DNA of 64,000 nt from Candidatus Versatilivorator sp. (GTDB lineage Bacteria > Acidobacteriota > Terriglobia > Versatilivoradales > Versatilivoraceae), in NCBI GenBank assembly GCA_965207735.1, contig OZ242296.1, forward strand, positions 2,144,001 through 2,208,000, in the 5' to 3' direction. Of the stretch, positions 6,301 through 34,458 are shown piece after piece. A program made the translations under genes and the position numbers. The notes under the pieces are model-generated. The model was given only the letters and a program-made list of their open reading frames with translations. It ran no database searches and had not been told where the DNA came from. Position 1 is the first letter of the stretch. Every line of letters starts with the position of its first letter.

Positions 6301-9300
6301 TGTCCCGATCCGCCCCGCCCGTGATCGCCCATGTCAGATCCTCCACCCGGTCATCCCCGTCCGTCGCCGTAAGCGTCACGACCGCCGTCTCATTCTCCGC
6401 CACGAAAATCAGGTCGTCCGTCGTGATCACCGGCGCCTCGTCGTCATCGGTGATCCGAATCGTTTTGGCAGTGCCCACCCTGCGGGATCCATGCTTAGCC
6501 GTAACCAGGACAGTCTCGGCGTCATCGTCAATCTTGTCGTCGATCGCCGTGACGTCGGTCGTGATCTCGCTGTGCTTCGCCTCCAGCGTGAGCGTCTCAG
6601 ACCCCACCCTGTAGTCCGTATTCTTATCCGCCGTCCCTTCAAGAGTGAGGGTGATTGTCTGATTCTGCGCAAAGGTAACGCGGTTCGTGACCTCGACCTT
6701 TACCGTCGCCGTTCCCCCCGCTTCCTCGATCTCCTCCGGATCGACCGACAGGGACAACTCTGGCACCGCATCGTCATCCCGGATCGTCAGCATCACCGCA
6801 GACGGCCCGATCACTCCCTCGCTGTTGCCGGATGTGCCCGACACACGCACGGACTTATCGGGCGTGTCTACATTGTTGTTGTGGGCGGTGATCGTCACTG
6901 TCCCGGTGCTGACGGTCTCGCCTTCCGTAATCGTCAGTGTCTTGTTCGCGCTCAGCGTGAAGTCCGCCGCCACTGCAGGGGCCAACGCCGCTGCCGATAC
7001 CGTTATGGTTGTCTCCTCGCTCGACGCACGGTTCAGTCTCGCCGTCACCGTGGCGCTGGCCCCGTTCTCACTAATTGCATTCGGCGTTAGCTCAAGCGTT
7101 ACTGTCAGTGGCGCCATTCCCACGTCCACTGAAACTGGTGCGCTACGCGTCGCTACGCCTCCTGAGACTAAAGCCGCCACCTGATAGATATAAGTCTCAC
7201 CGGCGGTCACGTCGCTGTCGGTGTAAGTAAGCCCCGTCAGGTTCTCCGCAATGTTTTCGAGCGTCGTGCCGTCGTCACGGTAGAGGGTGTAAGTGACTGA
7301 CGGTGCCGGGTTCCAGTGGCTGGTGTCCACCGCAGTCCAGGTCAACGTCACTCCAGTCGCTCCGGCTGCCGCCTGCAGGGTCGGCCCTTCCCGCAACTGG
7401 TGGCCAAACTCCGGCCAGCTCGCCGAGCCTTGTCCATCGAAGTTCACCTTCAGCACCGGGTACTGGCCGCTCGTGCCGAAGTGCCAGTAGTCCTCGTTCG
7501 TGCCGTCCCCGTCCAGGTCCACGTTCCACTGCGAATAGATCCCGCTGTATCCGCTCGGCGTCTGCAGCGCTGCGTTATTCTGTCCCTGGCCTTCCGCTCC
7601 AGTGGCAAGCCCCGAGGTCGTGGTGTCCCAGTAGCTGGCGGTGACCGTGCCGCTGTTGCTGCCGGCGAGCCCTCCAACGTCGGACTTGCCTGACACAGGT
7701 CCGGTCGCGTAGCCGGCCGTCACCGTGCCGCTGTTGCTGCCAACCAGCCCCCCTACATTGACATCGCCCGCTGCTCGGCCCGTCGCATAGCTCGCTGTTA
7801 CGGTCCCGTGATTCGCGCCGACCAGCCCGCCGACGTCGTCGCCGCCCGTGACCTCGACCGCGGCATAGCTGGCGACGACGGAGCCTCTGTTATCACCTAC
7901 CAGGCCGCCGACCTCCGCGCCGGTCCCGGACACCGTGCCGGTCACGTAGCTGGCAATGACCGAACCGCTGTTGAGTCCCGCCAGCCCGCCGACGTAATTG
8001 GTGCCCGAAACCGCGACGCCGATCAGACCGACGTGTCGAATGACGCTCGACGGCCCGGTCACGCCGAACAGCCCTTTGGTGAAGAAACTATCGACAAACA
8101 GATTGGAGATGGTGTGCCCGTTGCCCTCGAACACCGCCTGAAAGGGATTGCTGTAGCCGCCGATCCCGCTCCATCCCAGCCCGCGATTCCAATGCGCATC
8201 GTCCTTATCGGCCACCCCGTTGCCGTTGGTGTCGAAGTCCAGATCGGCCTTGAGCTCGTAGCCCACGCAATCGGTGAGTCCGCCGCAGCCCTGCCGACTG
8301 TCGACACCCGGAAACGCACTTCTATAAAGGCGAAAGGAGTCTCTCCCCGGGTCACCGTCCCCGTCCAGGTCATTAAGAACGGCCTCAAGCTGCTGGAGGT
8401 TCGTGATCTCGATCAGACCGTCGTCGTCCGTGTCGTAGTCGATCGCGCTCGACGCCAGAACCGTCACCGTAAACGTATGCGTTCCGCTCCCGGTCGACCC
8501 GCCCGCGTCGGTGGCCGTCACCGTGATCGTCGCCGTGCCGGCCGCCACCGGCGTGAGCGTCACCCGCGTGCCCGACAGGCTCACCGTGGCGACGCTTGTC
8601 GCCGACGAGGCAACCGCGTAGGTCAGCGCGTCGGTCTCCGGATCCTCGAACGCCTCCCCCAACTCGACCCCCGCCGCGTCGCCCACGTGCAGCCACCGGT
8701 CCGGCAGCGTCCCTATCGCAACCGGCGGCGAGTTACCGGGTGTGCTCACTACGAGCACGCTACGGATTGCCTCGCCGCCGTCGATTAACGCCGCCACCCG
8801 ATAGGTGTAGGTGGCGCCGGCCCGCGCAGCTGAATTGGTATACAGAAGTTCCCCGAGGTCCTCCGCCAAAGTCTCGACCGTGGCTCCATCGGTGCGGGTG
8901 ACAGTGTAGGTCACATCCGGTGCCGGATCCCAGTGGCTAGTTTCGACGGCGATCCAGGTCAGGGCGACCTGCGCACTCCCTGGCGTCGTCTCCATCGACG
9001 TCGCCGTCAGAGTCGGGCCGGCCCGCAACTGGTAGCCGAACTCCTGCCACGTCGCCGACGCCTGCTTGTCGAAGTTCACCTTCAGCGCGGGATACTGACT
9101 GCTCGTGCCGAAGTCCCAGGAACTGTCATTCCAGTTCTCATAAAGGCCGGAACTGTCCATCGGCGCCTGCAGCGCCGATGTCGTCTGTCCTGCCCCCGCC
9201 GCGCTGCTCGAAAGACCCGAGGTGACCGTGTCCCAGTAGCTGGCGGTGACGGCGGCGGCGGAGCAGCCGTCGGTCGACCCGATCAGCCCGCCGACGTGGC

Positions 9301-19628: not shown

Positions 19629-20861
19629 CTAAGTGACAGTATTCACCTGAATACCTCGGCTGATGGTGTCTCCTCCGGCAGACTTGAGTTGGTCCAGGTA
19701 ATCGGCCCACGCTTGCATCATCTTTCGACGTTCCGGCAAGTGAGCCGTTCGGTTGTAGGCCCGCCCGAGAGGATCACGCACCACATGTGCCAATTGGTGT
19801 TCGATGTAGTCGGGTCTAAAGCCCAACACTTCATCTAGGAGGGTTCTTGCCATGGCTCGAAAGCCATGCCCGCTCATTTCTTCCTTGCCGATATCCAGGC
19901 GACGCAGTGCGGCAAGAACGGCATTCTCGCTCATTGGACGATCTCCCCTTGGCGTGCGACCGCTCGGGAAGACAAAGCGTCCGTGTCCGGTCAGCGGGTA
20001 GAGTTCACGCAGAACCTCCACCGCCTGGCGGGATAAGGGCACGAGATGCGAGGTCTCAGTCTTGGTGACGGTAAAACGCCATTCGGCCGCTTCCAGGTCG
20101 ATATCGGACCATTCGGCTCTGCGTAGCTCGCCAGGCCGGACGAAAACCAATGGAGCCAGCCTGAGGGCACAGCGCACAATCAGTGACCCTTCGTAGCCGT
20201 CCAGCACTCTCAGCAAGGGACCAACCTTCTTGGGATCGGTGAGTGCAGCAAAGTGCTTTTTCTTTACGGGGGACAATGCGCCGCGCAAGTCTGCTGACAG
20301 GTCTCGCTCGGCGCGCCCCGTCGCCACGGCGTAGCGGAACACCTGTCCACAGTTCTGAAGGACCCGATGAGCGGTTTCCAGGACCCCGCGTTGTTCGATA
20401 CGGCGCACGACCTCCAACAACTGGGACGCGTTGATGTCGGCAATCGGATTGCCTCCCAACCAGGGGAAGATGTTTCTCTGAAGCCGACTCATAATCAGGC
20501 TGGAATGACTGGTTGCCCAGATCGGAGCCTGCTTGGTAAACCACTCGCGAGCTACGGCTTCAAAGGTGTTCGAGTCACGTTGCGCTTTAGCGGCCTTCTG
20601 GGCTTGGCGGTGTGCGCTTGGATCGACTCCCCCGGCCAATAGCCGTCGGGCATCTTCGCAGCGCCGCCGGGCTTCTTTGAGTGAAACGTCAGGATAGACT
20701 CCGAGAGAGATCCGTTTGTCCTTGCCTTCGAAGCGGTATTTTACTCGCCACCACTTGCCTCCTCGGGGTGAAACTTCAAGATATAGTCCACGCCCGTCGA
20801 ACATCTTTCTGGACTTCTTGCTTAGCTGAGCACGACGAATTGCAACATCGGTTAGGGGCAT
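19629..20861 (-). CDS. P4-like tyrosine integrase with arm-binding domain
   Basis: N-terminal DGRGLYLEV...LGVYPDVSL; catalytic R (VRPGE), HGFR, HQLAH, AYNR. Confidence 0.95.
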   Translation of the reverse strand: MPLTDVAIRRAQLSKKSRKMFDGRGLYLEVSPRGGKWWRVKYRFEGKDKRISLGVYPDVSLKEARRRCEDARRLLAGGVDPSAHRQAQKAAKAQRDSNTFEAVAREWFTKQAPIWATSHSSLIMSRLQRNIFPWLGGNPIADINASQLLEVVRRIEQRGVLETAHRVLQNCGQVFRYAVATGRAERDLSADLRGALSPVKKKHFAALTDPKKVGPLLRVLDGYEGSLIVRCALRLAPLVFVRPGELRRAEWSDIDLEAAEWRFTVTKTETSHLVPLSRQAVEVLRELYPLTGHGRFVFPSGRTPRGDRPMSENAVLAALRRLDIGKEEMSGHGFRAMARTLLDEVLGFRPDYIEHQLAHVVRDPLGRAYNRTAHLPERRKMMQAWADYLDQLKSAGGDTISRGIQVNTVT

Positions 20862-21025
20862 TTGGGGGCAACTCCTTTCAACGCCTTCTAATATACCCCA
20901 AATGTTGCCCCATTTTTCCCTCGGTTGTTAAGGGATATTATAAAACGAGGATAGACTATAAAATTTTTAAGTCTTTAACTAATAGTAATTTACTGGATAT
21001 TATTGGACGGCTTTGGAAGGATGTT

Positions 21026-21115
21026 TGGCGGAGGCGGTAGGATTCGAACCCACGGTACCCGTCAAGGTACAACGGTTTTCAAGACCGCCGCAATCGACCA
21101 CTCTGCCACGCCTCC
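21026..21115 (-). tRNA. tRNA-Ser(TGA)
   Basis: GGAGGCGTGGCAGAGTGGTCGATTGCGGCGGTCTTGAAAACCGTTGTACCTTGACGGGTACCGTGGGTTCGAATCCTACCGCCTCCGCCA; long variable arm, encoded CCA. Confidence 0.97.
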
Positions 21116-26142: not shown

Positions 26143-26191
26143 GGTTTTCCTCCTCAGGATTGACCAACCAAAACTTCCAAAAAAAACTCTT

Positions 26192-26350
26192 CTATCACTC
26201 CCCCCTTGAGGGGGAGTCGCAGAAGCCGAGCCGAATGGCGAAGGCTGATGCGGTGGGGGGCAGACGCGGCGTCCCGTTGGCGAAGCCCGCAGTCGAGCCG
26301 GTGGGGGGGCCGACGCGGCGTCCCGTTGGCGAAGCCCGCAGTCGAGCCGG
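26192..26350. repeat. REP-like family A element (half unit) plus a short tandem duplication
   Basis: TATCACTCCCCCCTTGAGGGGGAGTCGCAGAAGCCGAGCCGAATGGCGAAGGCTGATGCGGTGGGGGG, followed by two copies of GACGCGGCGTCCCGTTGGCGAAGCCCGCAGTCGAGCCGG. Confidence 0.85.
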
Positions 26351-26399
26351 GGCGGGGCAACTCCGGCGGAACTGGCTGGAACCGCCGGCGCCTTCCGCC

Positions 26400-28746: not shown

Positions 28747-28953
28747 GCCCGCTCCCGGAAGACCGCTGGAGACAACCCGTCGGTCCGCTCACCGCCTGAA
28801 AATGCCGATCAATATACCAAAAAATGCTGCCGCCGCCGCAACAGCCCTATAAAATCCAGTGATGTCTAGAGCCGTCCAGTAGAGTCTATAACTGTCTTAT
28901 TTATGAGTGTCTTACATAAGTCCTGCCGTGGCTTGTCTTGCTACCAACATCCC

Positions 28954-28982
28954 TTGCAATCCACTGTCATCCCCCATATAAT
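28954..28982 (+). promoter_or_regulatory. sigma70-type promoter of the second integrase (leaderless-type)
   Basis: TTGCAA-17 bp-TATAAT, with ATG 6 nt downstream. Confidence 0.7.
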
Positions 28983-28988
28983 GGGGGG

Positions 28989-30212
28989 ATGGATACTGTA
29001 ACGGACTTCGCACCTGCCCGACCCAAGACGAAACCCACCGGCTGCCACCCCAGCAACGCCCTTTCGGCCGCCTTCCTACGCTCCGCTCCGCCCGGAAGAT
29101 ACGCCGATGGAAACGGATTGTACCTCTTCGTCCAGCCCAGCGGAACCCGCAGTTGGATTCAACGCCTCGTCGTCCGTGGCCGTCGCCGGGAGTTCGGTCT
29201 CGGCAGCGTTGCCCTGGTCTCCCTGGCCGAGGCCAGGGAGAAGGCCCTGGCTAACCGCAAGCTCGCCCGCCAGGGCGGAGACCCTCTTGCCGAGAAGCGC
29301 CGCGCCGAGGGCATCCCCTCCTTTGCGGAAGCCGCCTCACGTGTGCTGGAACAGAAGCGGGACGGATGGCGAGGCCGGCGTCACCACCGCGAGTGGATGT
29401 CGAGCCTGAGGCGGTACGCTTTCCCCCGCATCGGCAAGATGCCGGTCTCAGAGGTCACCAGCGCCGACCTGCTTGAGATCCTCACCCCTATCTGGCACCG
29501 GAAGGCCTCCAGCGCGCGGCGGGTGCGCCAGCGCCTGCGGGCGGTCCTGGAATGGGCCGTAGCCATGGAGTACAGGATCGACAACCCCTGCGACAGGATC
29601 GGCCCGGTCCTGGGTCCCCAACAGGACGTTACCGAGCATATGCGGGCCTTGCCCCATCGGGAGGTGGCCGCGGCCATCCGGACGGTGCAGGCAGCGACGG
29701 CGCCGGAGGTGGCCAAGCTGGCCTTCGAGTACCTGGTTCTGACGGCAGCCAGGTGGAGCGAGGTGCGCTGGGCCGAGTGGGCGGAGATCGATCGGGACGC
29801 AGGTGTATGGACCGTCCCGGCCAGGCGGATGAAGGCCAACCGCCGGCACCCGGTGCCGCTCTGTGGACGTGCCCTGGAGATTCTCGAGGCGGCACGGACC
29901 CTGGGCGAGGGAGCCGGTACTCTGGTGTTCACCCGTGGGGAAGGGAAGCCGCTCAGTGACAAGGAGCTGCGGTGGCTGGTCCGCGAGCAGGGGATTGCAG
30001 CGGTGCCGCACGGGTTCCGCTCCAGTTTCCGGGACTGGGCGGCCGAAGAGACCGATCATCCCCGGGAGGTGATCGAGGCGGCCCTGGCGCATGTGGTTCG
30101 GAACCGGGTCGAGGCGGCCTATGCCCGCTCCGACCTGTTCGAGCGCCGGCGTCGGCTCATGGATGACTGGGCCGGCTACCTGGCCGGCCCGAGCCGAGGG
30201 CCGCAGGCCTAA
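28989..30212 (+). CDS. P4-like tyrosine integrase with arm-binding domain
   Basis: YADGNGLYLFVQPSG...GLGS...VSLAEARE; TAARWSE, PHGFRSSFRDW, ALAH, AAYARSD. Confidence 0.93.
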   Translation: MDTVTDFAPARPKTKPTGCHPSNALSAAFLRSAPPGRYADGNGLYLFVQPSGTRSWIQRLVVRGRRREFGLGSVALVSLAEAREKALANRKLARQGGDPLAEKRRAEGIPSFAEAASRVLEQKRDGWRGRRHHREWMSSLRRYAFPRIGKMPVSEVTSADLLEILTPIWHRKASSARRVRQRLRAVLEWAVAMEYRIDNPCDRIGPVLGPQQDVTEHMRALPHREVAAAIRTVQAATAPEVAKLAFEYLVLTAARWSEVRWAEWAEIDRDAGVWTVPARRMKANRRHPVPLCGRALEILEAARTLGEGAGTLVFTRGEGKPLSDKELRWLVREQGIAAVPHGFRSSFRDWAAEETDHPREVIEAALAHVVRNRVEAAYARSDLFERRRRLMDDWAGYLAGPSRGPQA

Positions 30213-30278
30213 GCAGAGCTCGATGGCCGTGCGGGGCGGGGACAGCGGGGCCGGCGGCGCACCGCGTAGTGCCGGGGA

Positions 30279-30340
30279 GCCAGCCTACCCAATGTAATAC
30301 ATTGGGGCTGGCGAGGGGCTCCGGCCCCTTCGAACCCCCG
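30279..30340. other. oriT-like hairpin
   Basis: GCCAGCC-TA-CCCAATGTA-A-TACATTGGG-GCTGGC, followed by GGGGCTCCGGCCCC..GAACCCCC. Confidence 0.4.
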
Positions 30341-30416
30341 ACCGGGGAGAGCTCTCCCCTGGCCCCTCCATCACCCCCGCCGCTCCCTTCTCCCTCTCCC
30401 ATGACGGAGGCCTCGA

Positions 30417-30697
30417 TGGCGCGAGTAGCGACAGCGAACGAGCGTGTGTGGAGCATCCCGGCCCCGCGCACGAAGGGGAATCGCGAGCACCGGGTCCCGC
30501 TGTGCCGTCGCGCCCTGGAGATTCTGGAGGAGGCGCGAGGTGGCGGAGGCTGCGCTGGCGCACAAGGTCCGCAACAGATCGAGGCGGCCTACCGGCGCCC
30601 GGACCTGTTCGAGCGTCCCCGCCGGCTCATGGAGGACTGGGCCGCCTACCTGGCCGGCGGAAGTCGAGGGCCGGACCGGCCGGTTGATCGGCCCTGA
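30417..30697 (+). pseudogene. degenerate 3' fragment of a paralogous integrase
   Basis: VWSIPAPRTKGNREHRVPLCRRALEILEEAR, then (frameshifted) EVAEAALAHKVRN..IEAAYRRPDLFER..RLMEDWAAYLAG; the HGFR segment is deleted. Confidence 0.85.
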
Positions 30698-30714
30698 CCT
30701 CGGCAGCGCTCGAT

Positions 30715-31170
30715 GGCCTTCCCGCCAGGGATCACTGTGGAGGGAGCGACCCCCGCACGGGGGAGGCAAAGGGTGTCCGGATCCCTGTCCACCTTTGCCC
30801 TCCCCCGTGGCGCACCAGCGGCCAAAAAGGGGGGGTCGCTCCCTCCACCAGCACCCCTCTCGTGCGGCGCGCGGGCGTGCCGGGCGAGGGGGGACACGCG
30901 AGGCGCAGCCTCGCTTCGCTTCTCCGCAATGGTCGCGGGGAATCCGTGTCGTCCCGCGTCTGGTGCGGCGTTTCGTGAAAGTCGCCAACCACAACGGCGA
31001 GGGGCTCCGCCCTCCGAGAAGAGGCGTTGTGCGGATCAAGATCATGTCCCCCTTTGATGTCACCCCCCCCTTCTGAAAGGGTGACACCCATCTGACGGCA
31101 TCTGCTTGACCCCCAGCGGTGGAAATCGTCGATCATTCCAGGGTCATTGGGTGAGCCTGTTTCTTGCTCC
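30715..31170 (+). repeat. left copy of a ~460-bp diverged, structured inverted repeat
   Basis: Aligns by eye in blocks to the reverse complement of 32341-32810 (e.g. GGCCTTCCCGCCAGGGATCACTGT, GCACCAGCGGC, TCTGAAAGG, CTTGACCCC, GGAAATCGTCGATCAT). Confidence 0.85.
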
Positions 31171-31396
31171 GATTCATCCCCACGCCTGCAGGGAACAGGA
31201 CCCTGACCAGTATTCCGAATGGCTGAAGACGGACCATCCTTTACGTCTCTCGCGGAAATGTCGCTGTCCGCATGAACCGTGCCATCACTTTGCTCAAGCG
31301 CCGCATTGATGCACGCACTCAATCCGTTTCGCCCAAAGGCTCCAGACAGTCCTGAACAGTCCCATCTGAAAAAAATTGTCGGTACTGAGGGAAAAT

Positions 31397-31603
31397 ATGA
31401 AGCGCTGCGACCCAGGATCAGGCGGGGAATCTTGCAGGGCTGGATGCAAGATAGCTAAAGAGATCTGCCTAATACGGGCAGGCAAAGCCTATTGCGCAGA
31501 CAAGAGTGATTGTTGCTGGTATAAGAACCCGGGACGGCCCCATCCGGGCTCGTGGCCCTGCTACTACTACGACAACAATTGCCCCGCTGCTTGTTGTGCC
31601 TGA
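31397..31603 (+). CDS. 68-aa cysteine-rich peptide (11 Cys), function unknown
   Basis: GAGGG RBS and ATG 31397; lower-GC segment; MKRCD...CC...CPAACCA. Confidence 0.55.
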   Translation: MKRCDPGSGGESCRAGCKIAKEICLIRAGKAYCADKSDCCWYKNPGRPHPGSWPCYYYDNNCPAACCA

Positions 31604-31632
31604 AAGCCCCATGGAGCAATAGGAGGGGACAC

Positions 31633-31884
31633 ATGACACGTTTCTTCGCCGGAGTAGGGATTGGCGCATTCGTTGTTTTGTTGCTGGTTTCTCTCTGGTT
31701 TCTCCATTGGAGTCTAGTATCTAACCCCGAAGATGAGCTATTCAGTCAAGTTCTGATTCAATGGGTGCTGTTTCTGATCCCCGAGGTGATTCTGCTACTC
31801 CTGCTTTGGCGGGTGTGGAAGGCTCTTGTCGGGATCCAGCTCGAGTTGGGGAAGATTCGTCGCGGCGTGGATGATCGGGAGTAA
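31633..31884 (+). CDS. small two-TM membrane protein
   Basis: Strong AGGAGG RBS; two hydrophobic helices followed by a basic amphipathic tail. Confidence 0.7.
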   Translation: MTRFFAGVGIGAFVVLLLVSLWFLHWSLVSNPEDELFSQVLIQWVLFLIPEVILLLLLWRVWKALVGIQLELGKIRRGVDDRE

Positions 31885-31906
31885 GGGCATATCCTATGAA
31901 CGCTAC

Positions 31907-32602
31907 ATGATTACCGGAATAGTCGTTGACGTCGCCGTTGCCCTGCTGTGGGGCATCATCTCAGCCCTGAACCACCGGTATGACGCCCCGGAGCGGCCCT
32001 GGTCGCCACCCCAGCAAGACGACCAGGGAGGGTGCTGGACTGGCACCCCCGGGAAAAAACAGATTTCCCTGGCTCTTCGTGGCCGTATCGGGACGGTTAG
32101 CCCGGACCGAATGGCGACCACGGGACCGCTGAGCGAGCCGACCCGTCCGGTTTCCCCACAGGCGGCGAGACCTGCGGTCCCTGAGATGGAAATCCGTCCA
32201 GGAGGCGTTTCCGGGTGCTCTGCTATGCCAGGGAGTGAGAAAGTCCAGCCTGCCCCCCGCAAAGCTCGCGGATTCAGGGGTCAGGACACGATCGAACGCC
32301 ATGGCGGCCTCGGTGTCGTCATGGAGAAGATCGACCAATGGGAGCAGGAAGACCCGGCCTCCAACGGCCGCGACATGATCGACGATTTCCGCCTCCCGGG
32401 GTCAAGGACGTGGCGTCGTATGGGTGGCCACCTTTCAGACGGGGGGTGGCTCACACAGGTGGCGCACCAAGTGGCTCACGCTTTGGACCACCCCAACGCT
32501 CCACTCTCAGAGGGCGAAGCCCTCGCCGCCGTGGTCCAGGCTGTTCCCGGAAACCCGCATTGGACGCGGGTTGGCACGGATTTCCCAAATCCTATGGGGT
32601 AA
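31907..32602 (+). CDS. possible hypothetical protein with an N-terminal hydrophobic segment; reads into the right inverted repeat
   Basis: MITGIVVDVAVALLWGIISAL...; weak RBS; may be a chimeric remnant. Confidence 0.25.
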   Translation: MITGIVVDVAVALLWGIISALNHRYDAPERPWSPPQQDDQGGCWTGTPGKKQISLALRGRIGTVSPDRMATTGPLSEPTRPVSPQAARPAVPEMEIRPGGVSGCSAMPGSEKVQPAPRKARGFRGQDTIERHGGLGVVMEKIDQWEQEDPASNGRDMIDDFRLPGSRTWRRMGGHLSDGGWLTQVAHQVAHALDHPNAPLSEGEALAAVVQAVPGNPHWTRVGTDFPNPMG

Positions 32603-32810
32603 AGCCCCGTGGGGCGTCGGCATCGCGTGTCCGCCCCCTCGCCCGGCGCGTCGTGGGGCCGCACAGGAGGGGGGGAAGTGGAGGGAGCGACCCCCCTCCT
32701 TTTGCCGCTGGTGCAGCACCGGGGAGTGTTCACCGGCGCGTACAGTGGCGCGCGGTGAACACTCCCCTGCGGGGGTCGCTCCCTCAACAGTGATCCCTGG
32801 CGGGAAGGCC
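32341..32810 (-). repeat. right copy of the ~460-bp structured inverted repeat
   Basis: See the left copy; same outer stem GGAGGGAGCGACCCCC/GGGGGTCGCTCCCTC, different inner stem. Confidence 0.85.
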
Positions 32811-33055
32811 TCCAGCGCCTCCTCACCGAGCGGCACCTCAACGTCGGCTCCCGGCTGCGCGCCCTCGTCGATGAGGCCCTCGAAGAACAGAAGACCACAG
32901 ATGGCCAGAGGCCGAGAAGGACAAGGCTGGAGGATGCTCACAACCCGATATCTCCGATCCGAAGCACGGACAGCCTACCACCCCGCTCGACGGTCTCCGA
33001 CGCAGAGTCTCGGGGGTTGAACATCGTAAGACCTGTCCACCAACGTCCTGAATAG
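32810..33055 (+). pseudogene. start-less fragment resembling a ribbon-helix-helix protein
   Basis: LQRLLTERHLNVGSRLRALVDEALEEQ begins exactly at the repeat boundary; high-GC3 codons. Confidence 0.35.
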
Positions 33056-33153
33056 TCCAGTGGATTCCCGTTCAAATAGAGGGATATAATGAGGGGATTA
33101 CAACAGGGCTAACCACAGTAAGTCTAATATAATGAACAGTTACAAGTTTTCTG

Positions 33154-33250
33154 ATGTAGTCGCCGCCTACGCGGCTCGACACCCATACGCGACGTTTCCC
33201 ATGGGCTGACGCCCACGGCTAAGTGCTGCCGCGGCCTACTCGGCTCCACT
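33154..33250. repeat. REP-like family B element
   Basis: GTCGCCGCCTACGCGGCTCGAC...CCATGGGCTGACGCCCACGGCTAAGTGCTGCCGCGGCC; similar to 42499-42592. Confidence 0.8.
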
Positions 33251-33284
33251 CGATTCTCTGACATTCACTCCCGGGACGCCGCGT

Positions 33285-34385
33285 TTGCCCCCCACCGCAT
33301 CAGCCTTCGCCATTCGGCTCGGCTTCTGCGACTCCCCCTCAAGGGGGGAGTGATACCGGGCACTAACCGGGACCGGCGTTGACACATTGGACCGGGAACA
33401 TGGTTTACATCCCGCCCGGGAAACGGGCAAGACGCCCCATGCAAGCCTCAAGTATCACTCCCCCCTTGAGGGGGAGTCGGAGAGACAAGGGCGCAGCCCG
33501 CAGTCGATCCGGAGGGGGGCAGACTCGGCGTCCCGAAAGTGGCAATCGGCAGTACTCGCAGAGCCACAAAGCGAGACGGACCTGCTTCAACGGCACGCGT
33601 TGCCCCAAAGCCGCGCCGGCGACCGCCCCCCACCGCATCAGCCTTCGCCATTCGGCTCGGCTTCTGCGACTCCCCCTCAAGGGGGGAGTGATATCGGGCA
33701 CTAACCGGGAACGGCGTTTACACTTTAGACCGGGAACATGGTTTACACCCTGCCCGGGAAACGGGCAAGGCGCCCCATGCAAGCCTCAAGTATCACTCCC
33801 CCCTTGAGGGGGAGTCGGAGAGACAAGGGCACAGCCCGCAGTCGATCCGGTGGGGGGCAGACTCGGCGTCCCGTAAAAGCCGATCAGCGGCACTCACAGA
33901 GCCACAAAGCGAGATGGACCTGCTTCAACGGCACGCGTCGCCCCAAAGCCGCGCCGGCGTCTGCCCCCCACCGCATCAGCCTTCGCCATTCGGCTCGACT
34001 TCTGCGACTCCCCCTCAAGGGGGGAGTGATACACGGGCACTAACCGGCAACGGCGTTTACACATTGGACCGGGAACATCGTTTACATCATGCCCGCGAAT
34101 CGGGCAAGGCGCCCCATGCAAGCCTCGAGTATCACTCCCCCTTGAGGGGGAGTCGGAGAGACAAGGGCACAGCCCGCAGTCGATCCGGTGGGGGGCCAAC
34201 GCGGCGTCCCGTAAAAGCCGATCAGCGGCACTCACAGAGCCACAAAGCGAGACGGACCTGCTTCAACGGCACGCGTTGCCCCAAAGCCGCGCCGGCGTCC
34301 GCCCCCCACCGCATCAGCCTTCGCCATTCGGCTCGGCTTCTGCGACTCCCCCTCAAGGGGGAAGTGATACACGGGCACTAACCGG
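33285..34385. repeat. tandem array of family A REP-like composite units, period 338-339 bp (about 3.3 units)
   Basis: ATCACTCCCCC(C)TTGAGGGGGAGTCGGAGAGACAAGGG at 33454, 33792 and 34131; each unit is closed by an inverted copy. Confidence 0.93.
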
Positions 34386-34458
34386 GACGGCACTCCCGGG
34401 AGCGCGGGCGTCCCGCCCGCCTCCTGTCCCGACCAACGCTATCGTCCCTCCCCCGCCG

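Follow-up and report, generated by a model that had tools for sequence, protein, structure and literature searches.

Origins of transfer (oriT) of the MOB_C type have been described for CloDF13, pMET1/HPI-ECOR31/ICEKp1, and pAD1. According to excerpts of the sources, they lie upstream of the gene encoding a VirD4 coupling protein, operate with a VirB-type channel and a winged-helix relaxase, carry a nick-like GG(G/T)G/GTCG sequence in one or more arms of a long inverted repeat, and have direct repeats apart from the nick. Excerpts place oriT before the coupling protein in some MOB_C layouts (bioRxiv 2024.01.30.577996; PMC2262945) and between the mating pair formation (MPF) genes and the relaxase in others (bioRxiv 2026.01.13.699239). 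The abstract of PMC8136818 describes for pWBG749 and SmpO one conserved relaxase that goes with several oriT subtypes, specificity-setting accessory residues, repeated switching, and oriT copies carried by nonconjugative elements. Integrative and mobilizable elements (IMEs) such as iOriTs (10.64898/2026.01.13.699239) and MGIVchHai6 with its MobI (review PMC5704250) are portrayed, in the passages concerned, as integrase islands that have an oriT but lack both relaxase and channel, some carrying an accessory factor only, and that outnumber the helper on which they hitch. Here we describe two inverted repeats of ~460 bp in a window of 64,000 nucleotides (the whole stretch analyzed; assembly GCA_965207735.1, contig OZ242296.1, positions 2,144,001 to 2,208,000 of the forward strand) from the acidobacterium Candidatus Versatilivorator sp. 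Both are copies of the spacer that separates virD4 from an unannotated gene, here called X, in an integrative and conjugative element (ICE) of the same genome, and this spacer is probably an oriT.

The locus appears to share with these systems the traits just listed, yet it departs from each of them. Unlike in known MOB_C layouts, the relaxase gene is 6 to 11 kb away in close families, and whereas the pAD1 relaxase TraX itself binds the direct repeats according to an excerpt of PMC12857230, the repeats here track a second protein, X. Unlike oriT-only IMEs, a single chromosome holds 46 copies of six or more subtypes, two of them on one 4.3-kb island that is inserted into a repeat resembling repetitive extragenic palindromic (REP) sequences. 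By analogy, the system would work like SmpO-type specificity combined with oriT-only islands, built on a MOB_C origin. The passages searched in bioRxiv 2026.01.13.699239 gave no match to "acidobacter", and no description of this spacer or of X was found in a literature search that left most subscription papers and the bioRxiv supplementary oriT lists uncovered.

The paired repeats are copies of an ICE spacer with a conserved stem

A first-pass annotation of the window had reported ordered blocks common to both repeats, and alignment and BLAST bore this out, positions 30715-31170 being 70% identical to the reverse complement of 32341-32810 (E 1.7e-45). The outer stem and the inner hairpin that it encloses are present in both copies as had been described (RNA z -4.7 and -4.8; 0/100 shuffles each). 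Covariation in the outer stem is real as well: across homologous hairpins, a mean of 5.72 of the outer 6 bp are paired compared to 3.99 after shuffling (0/10,000, in a test that ignores the kinship of the sequences), and these pairing statistics support the earlier suggestion of selection on stem structure. Codon-level selection does not suffice as the sole cause, since the outer noncoding part is more alike between copies (77%) than the formerly coding tail (64%). The shared reading frame that had been noticed (EQE...MIDDF...TDFP) does exist and is the decayed tail of X: read on the other strand, the inner end of the repeat is the 3' tail of this unannotated gene of 315 to 331 amino acids. 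The parts of the two copies are as follows.

30715..31190, minus strand: X-tail/predicted oriT module, copy 1, box subtype GG(T/G)GACA (BLAST and profile; 85% to two congener ICE spacers)
30717..30732, minus strand: terminal motif of copy 1, ATCCCTG(G)CGGGAAGG on the gene strand (exact-match search)
30737..30848, no strand assigned: outer inverted repeat of copy 1, GGGG/GTCGC in both arms, candidate cut at 30834/30835 on the plus strand
31045..31086, minus strand: array of two direct boxes and one inverted box in copy 1 (the second stem of the first-pass annotation)
31065..31190, minus strand: decayed 3' tail of gene X, amino acids 287-328, stop lost (tblastn 45%, E 2e-7)
32285..32455, plus strand: decayed 3' tail of gene X, amino acids 275-331 (tblastn 58%, E 4e-15)
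32285..32810, plus strand: X-tail/predicted oriT module, copy 2, box subtype GTGGC(T/G)C
32424..32478, plus strand: box array of copy 2, one inverted and three direct boxes in 12-13-bp steps
32678..32788, no strand assigned: outer inverted repeat of copy 2 with a predicted nick site (candidate cut at 32691/32692, minus strand)
32793..32808, plus strand: terminal motif of copy 2

The resident ICE is the only complete one in the genome and is ordered integrase, AlpA, primase-helicase, VirB2, B4, B10, VirB5-like, B6, B8, X, spacer, VirD4, VirB11, RepB primase, ArdC, and P0270. Its X-virD4 spacer is 75% identical to copy 1 and 69% identical to copy 2. The order X, motif, VirD4 was found in 12/12 ICE regions, which had been chosen around a relaxase and the motif, and more distant families have MOB_C, X, spacer, and VirD4 side by side. 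The spacer is thus intergenic and upstream of the coupling-protein gene, the position known for MOB_C origins. Exact matches to a 15-mer of the terminal motif numbered 74, spread over all 13 distant X-bearing genomes, versus 0 for the control.

An inverted repeat with a GGGG/GTCGC core lies behind 93 of 117 X segments. Among 83 nonredundant homologous hairpins, the core AGCG/CGCT is near invariant and is paired in 81 to 82 of 82 at each position, and the outer-stem positions that flank it show two to four Watson-Crick pair types (82 hairpins). The CloDF13 nic site, GGGTG/GTCGGG as quoted second-hand in an excerpt of PMC5935869, falls within a long inverted repeat, in its 3' arm, and an excerpt of PMC2262945 puts two nic sites within one inverted repeat in pMET1/HPI-ECOR31. 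This resemblance is a likeness to a short motif; taken together with the MOB_C-like relaxase encoded by the ICE, it makes the spacer likely to be a MOB_C-type oriT. The option of a transfer origin raised by the first-pass annotation thus finds support in the conserved stem, the position in the ICE, and the likeness to the CloDF13 nick site. As for the arm that may be cut, four chimeras with mismatched arms, inspected by eye, have their crossover at the X-proximal arm in every case. This arm is also the more conserved one (GGGGGTCGC in 77 versus 43 of 93), and it is no more than favored as the predicted cut arm.

Several observations were made on the terminal motif itself. In the window (30717-30732) and in homologues, it forms a mini-hairpin of 3 to 4 bp whose loops, among 139 counted with a search pattern that biases the counts, were GCA (87), GCCA (30), and also GGA, GTA, and GCAA. 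G-N-A is a loop type characteristic of stable hairpins in single-stranded DNA, and the mini-hairpin is a possible primase site. A second integrase family with CCTTCCCGCAGGGA at its end seems to be inserted in the motif, splitting it at CCCTGCGG; its upstream ends lie at 636624, 1014107, 1123238, and 2497557 of contig G000:C1, with copies at 639328, 1016811, 2495752, and 1110928 and also in L009, L010, and L014. IMEs that target oriT are known, and this family may be likened to them. Junctions at CCCTGCGG were considered as nick-site scars and rejected, since the other integrase family has the core at its end. In L039 (~7310-8060) and L156, a group II intron-like insert starting with GTGCG lies within the motif, between CCCTGCG and GGAAGG; the L039 insert ends with a domain V/VI-like sequence.

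The box sequence of the spacer tracks protein X

The second covarying stem of the first-pass annotation survives in part. Its inverted pair exists, but it is one pair within an array of boxes in which direct copies of the same word covary too. To define this array, 29 elements were picked by eye from 75 as sharing one spacer architecture, and L086, a duplicate spacer, was dropped. In the remaining 28 elements of this subfamily, 7-bp boxes align at one inverted position, two direct positions ~22 bp apart, one hairpin-loop position, and one further upstream. Boxes agree within an element at 4.1 to 4.6 of 5 core letters, compared to 2.8 between elements (0/10,000). Direct copies cannot pair with each other, and this concerted change is therefore best read as binding-site coevolution.

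Windows of five X residues were then examined as predictors of the box after removal of overall protein identity. The best lay in a winged-helix domain, where the recognition helix begins (r 0.50) and in the wing (r 0.41) (4/2000 permutations). On 21 elements shared by the comparisons, permutations reached the observed value 0/1000 times for X, 69/1000 for the linked VirB8, and 155/1000 for VirB6, and the start of the relaxase helix, GHPY(A/T)(A/T)RRA, was present in 12/12 elements spanning eight box types. A replicate within the genus of the window again ranked the wing and the helix highest (0/1000; n = 23, many of them close kin). In 11 independent tree pairs, with windows chosen on the same data, which counts against the result, box change correlated with helix-plus-wing change (rho 0.76, p 0.007) rather than with distance (rho 0.14), and seven distant pairs with the same box had 4.4 of 7 helix residues in common versus 2.5 in 182 other pairs. 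The boxes of copy 2 match those of four resident X genes with the helix YAKSSANR, and those of copy 1 match X with the helix LTRRTAQR, which was seen intact only in congeners (three loci).

We consider it probable that X binds the boxes; whether bound X also licenses the relaxase we judge to be evenly balanced. The direct repeats, which lie away from the predicted nic, track X more than the relaxase. Because the boxes follow the helix and wing of X while the start of the relaxase helix is near invariant, the determinant of oriT specificity is likely X, a role that SmpO plays in staphylococci, and X residues covary statistically with box subtype in the manner expected of an SmpO-type factor. 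X is nonetheless not a member of the SmpO family. SmpO is a small ribbon-helix-helix (RHH) protein found on plasmids, whereas X is larger, chromosomal, and composed of a winged helix and a nuclease-like domain, with more than 10 box types.

Gene X and the ICE protein P0270

X has 1,988 homologues and occurs in 42 of 401 genomes of the phylum, 11 of 13 congeners, and 0 of 17 other family members. The genome carries it intact five times: immediately behind an integrase in four cases and within the ICE in the fifth. No significant match to X was found in Pfam, PHROGs, NCBIfam, or the sequences of the PDB, and no homologue was found on 72,556 plasmids; the Atlas search returned unnamed clusters only, plus a 0.86 lead to DUF5697. 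The model of X (predicted local distance difference test score, 79.5) shows a MarR-like winged helix followed by a domain closest to restriction-type nucleases. Foldseek with this model gave nothing at E<=0.001, and the best fold match by VIA was SdaI (Z 7.6, root mean square deviation 4.2, 121 aligned), tied with rows for NucS, AF1548, RPB5, and BstEII. Because a Z of 7.6 is within the range of common arrangements, we assign a nuclease-like fold to the second domain of the model with moderate confidence only. The PD motif is missing from X; its strands that match in position, as judged by eye, read K-x-P-(I/V)-A and F-V-Y-x-D. The idea that X is itself the MOB_C relaxase was rejected for want of the catalytic PD...(D/E) residues, P0270 being found instead. 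The two proteins resemble each other in profile comparison at the winged helix only (probability 7.7%). Three X homologues (P0139, P0140, and P0172) are fused to ArdC/MPTase anti-restriction domains.

P0270 is encoded by a single-copy gene which, like the only whole virD4, lies inside the ICE, and it has homologues in 15 of 17 X-bearing genomes. It contains a winged helix, and H110-D111, P185-D186, and E204 are invariant in 33/33 homologues. An excerpt of the review PMC12857230 defines MOB_C relaxases as winged-helix PD-(D/E)XK proteins; with its winged helix and conserved PD...E acidic motif, P0270 fits a MOB_C-like relaxase. In the distant-family spacers L138-L149, the hairpin is separated from virD4 by a small conserved ORF that looks RHH-like by eye, and a second, broken virB4 homologue is located outside the ICE at 2786000-2789200 of G000:C1.

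Copies are dispersed over the genome, and the window pair sits on a small integrase island

A repeat profile gave 95 matches in the 5.26-Mb genome, of which 46 are near full length and the rest partial. Integrases are found near most copies, and the pair is not private to the window but belongs to a genome-wide repeat: 40 of the 46 near-full copies are at most 6 kb from a match to a P4-type tyrosine integrase, versus 8.6% of random positions. Among these 46, at least six box types can be told apart; 26 copies are of the type of copy 2 and of four integrase-plus-X elements, and 7 are of the type of copy 1. At 20 further motif loci, X and/or virD4 remnants were found in 19 and an integrase in 13. 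Thirteen pairs of neighboring copies within 8 kb comprise 5 direct, 5 inward, and 3 outward pairs, so the inward pair of the window is one arrangement among several. It is ordinary debris of the X/predicted oriT system and not a new cassette.

The other features of the 4.3-kb island are given below.

28825..28837, plus strand: left attachment (att) core TGCTGCCGCCGCC, inside a REP-like dispersed repeat (homology start in most close integrase copies)
28989..30212, plus strand: P4-type tyrosine integrase, open frame (PF13356, PF22022, PF00589)
30213..30400, no strand assigned: noncoding module with hairpin (24 further BLAST matches in the genome)
30446..30673, plus strand: 3'-end fragments of a second integrase (tblastn, amino acids 273-300, 359-373, and 372-405)
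31633..31884, plus strand: cargo ORF, small putative membrane protein (ORF list; no Pfam match above the cut-off)
32804..32900, plus strand: 5'-truncated RHH-like ORF, fused to the motif by a deletion across AAGGCC
33159..33167, plus strand: right att core GTCGCCGCC (common end of the "right" segment in ~20 copies)

Both ends are corroborated by a congener and by sequencing runs, among which no RNA run was listed. In congener G019, which is without the segment, the sequence passes directly from 28825 to 33221, and the empty-site joint 28763-33224 occurs in sequencing runs X3 and X6 (two runs from other studies). The ends enclose one open integrase and scraps of another, a pair of oriT-like copies that differ in subtype, a membrane-protein ORF, and the truncated RHH-like ORF, and there is no relaxase or MPF gene; the helper ICE is in the same genome. 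With an integrase, att boundaries, absence from relatives, and neither relaxase nor MPF genes, the island fits the pattern of an oriT-only IME. Its integrase has 79 whole or partial tblastn matches genome wide, and the noncoding module at 30213-30400 occurs ~25 times, always in such islands and never in the ICE region. Truncation of an RHH-like gene at the right boundary, already noticed in the first pass, holds: longer versions including the start (MLHRVPLHI...) are present at other copies, and the RHH label was given by eye, a profile search of the window proteins having yielded no match for this ORF. The cargo was also found in runs X3, X4, X6, and X8; because it occurs elsewhere with another left side, it is not defined by the repeat pair. 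A cysteine-rich 75-amino-acid cargo ORF at 31376-31603 (plus strand) had no Pfam match and may be spurious. The att core sits in one REP-like repeat, with a subthreshold Acido-Lenti-1 match at 33199-33245, and tandem REP-like repeats with long perfect hairpins occupy 33160-34430 and 26190-26370. Another integrase, 30% identical, adjoins tRNA-Ser at 19695-21115 (minus strand).

Alternative readings and points against a transfer origin

An iteron-type replication origin, in which X would bind the boxes as the initiator of replication of the excised element and the ICE primases would act at the hairpins, is unlikely, though the likeliest of the alternatives. Plasmid iterons are phased direct repeats bound by a winged-helix protein, and the spacer pairs such a protein with phased direct repeats of ~22 bp (one subfamily) or 11 to 13 bp (this genus). 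Coevolution of box and initiator would be expected here too, a RepB-type primase and a primase-helicase are among the ICE products, and integrase-X-spacer elements arose more than once. However, no AT-rich unwinding region is present in the two copies of the window (the 1-kb segments with the spacers are 72% and 66% GC), the module lies within the transfer operon, its stem core resembles a MOB_C nick site, and X is absent from the plasmids searched. A slightly less likely reading takes X as a transcription factor for virD4-virB11, the boxes as its operator, and the hairpin as acting in the transcript. The MarR-like winged helix of X and the location of the boxes upstream of virD4 would suit it, as would the GGAAGG of the motif, which in this genus precedes the start of virD4 by a distance suited to ribosome binding, and such a role could coexist with an oriT as a second function. 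It leaves unexplained why the whole spacer is kept on islands without virD4 and why the stem core is invariant across families at ~30% X identity; in other families, moreover, virD4 starts ~50 nt from the motif.

The two remaining options had both been raised in the first-pass annotation. A structured noncoding RNA spread as a dispersed repeat is very improbable: despite stable folds and compensatory pairs, a scan of Rfam gave nothing at the gathering score (the only match was to S-element, E 0.75), the outer stem is nearly without G-T pairs, isolated mismatches indicate no clear strand (23 G-T versus 36 A-C), and direct repeats covary as well as inverted ones. Least credible of all is that the copies are the recombination ends of an invertible or transposable cassette. 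They do flank ~1.1 kb in inverted orientation next to a tyrosine recombinase, and 5 of the 13 neighboring pairs do face inward. The other eight are direct or outward, the window copies are 70% identical, of different subtypes, and end inwardly at different points of X, and the island ends are the att cores, located elsewhere. No inversion joint was listed in the contigs of six runs, a weak result given that contigs drop rare forms.

A number of observations weigh against a MOB_C oriT with specificity set by X. No repeat was detected behind 21 of 117 X segments, several of these being search misses, and in L059, L060, L128, and L148, X abuts virD4 with no spacer; the oriT of these four ICEs must be elsewhere. 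The nick-site-like pattern occurs once in CloDF13, but 58 of 200 shuffles also match, and the short match therefore counts only together with its context. A scan of breakpoints and linkage decay showed several minima and no single hot spot or arm. Regarding the boxes, the helix alone gave p 0.08 in the 11 independent pairs, L156/L160 and L157/L159 have the same or nearly the same helix with different boxes, and L177/L179 have the same box with different helices; one later relaxase window reached 35/1000, and a first helix/box test with automatic, partly wrong anchors was negative (760/1000). Finally, the match of P0270 to PF13814 (Replic_Relax; E 0.002) does not reach the Pfam cut-off, just 5 of its 33 homologues match this family, and lists from fold searches were filled by the winged helix and nothing beyond.

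Proposed mechanism and implications

On balance, we lean toward a MOB_C oriT with X-set specificity carried on an integrase island that hitches on the resident ICE. What the module is, where it lies, how many copies exist, where the island ends, and that the boxes change in concert and are statistically linked to X is established; binding, nicking, and transfer are inferred. The integrase would excise the island at its GCCGCC att cores. X, provided in trans either from the ICE or from any of the four intact integrase-plus-X elements, would bind the subtype-specific 7-bp boxes through its recognition helix and wing. With this help, P0270, the predicted ICE relaxase, would cut one arm of the outer inverted repeat at GGGG/GTCGC; the strand would then be transferred by way of VirD4 and the VirB channel, which the only complete ICE provides. 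The two copies in the window would differ because two specificity subtypes were joined by nested insertion and deletion. More tentatively, X could represent a relaxosome factor of a new class: a relaxase-like winged-helix protein with a dead nuclease, reading a 7-bp address that evolves fast next to a MOB_C nick site that stays fixed.

Few oriTs are known beyond clinical taxa, and of the relaxase families MOB_C is one of the most poorly understood. The present analysis proposes an oriT, its nick site predicted to the base, for a family of acidobacterial ICEs that is widespread, as well as a candidate function for an unannotated family of ~2,000 proteins. If true, acidobacterial ICEs would diversify their transfer specificity with the relaxase unchanged, and minimal elements composed of an integrase, X, and oriT would hijack an ICE by bringing nothing but their own address reader. 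The ~2,000 natural X/box pairs would then amount to a readable protein-DNA code, and the helix/box pairs make the question of who mobilizes whom testable by swaps of a few residues. Such a system would explain how dozens of small islands in one chromosome could rely on a single ICE.

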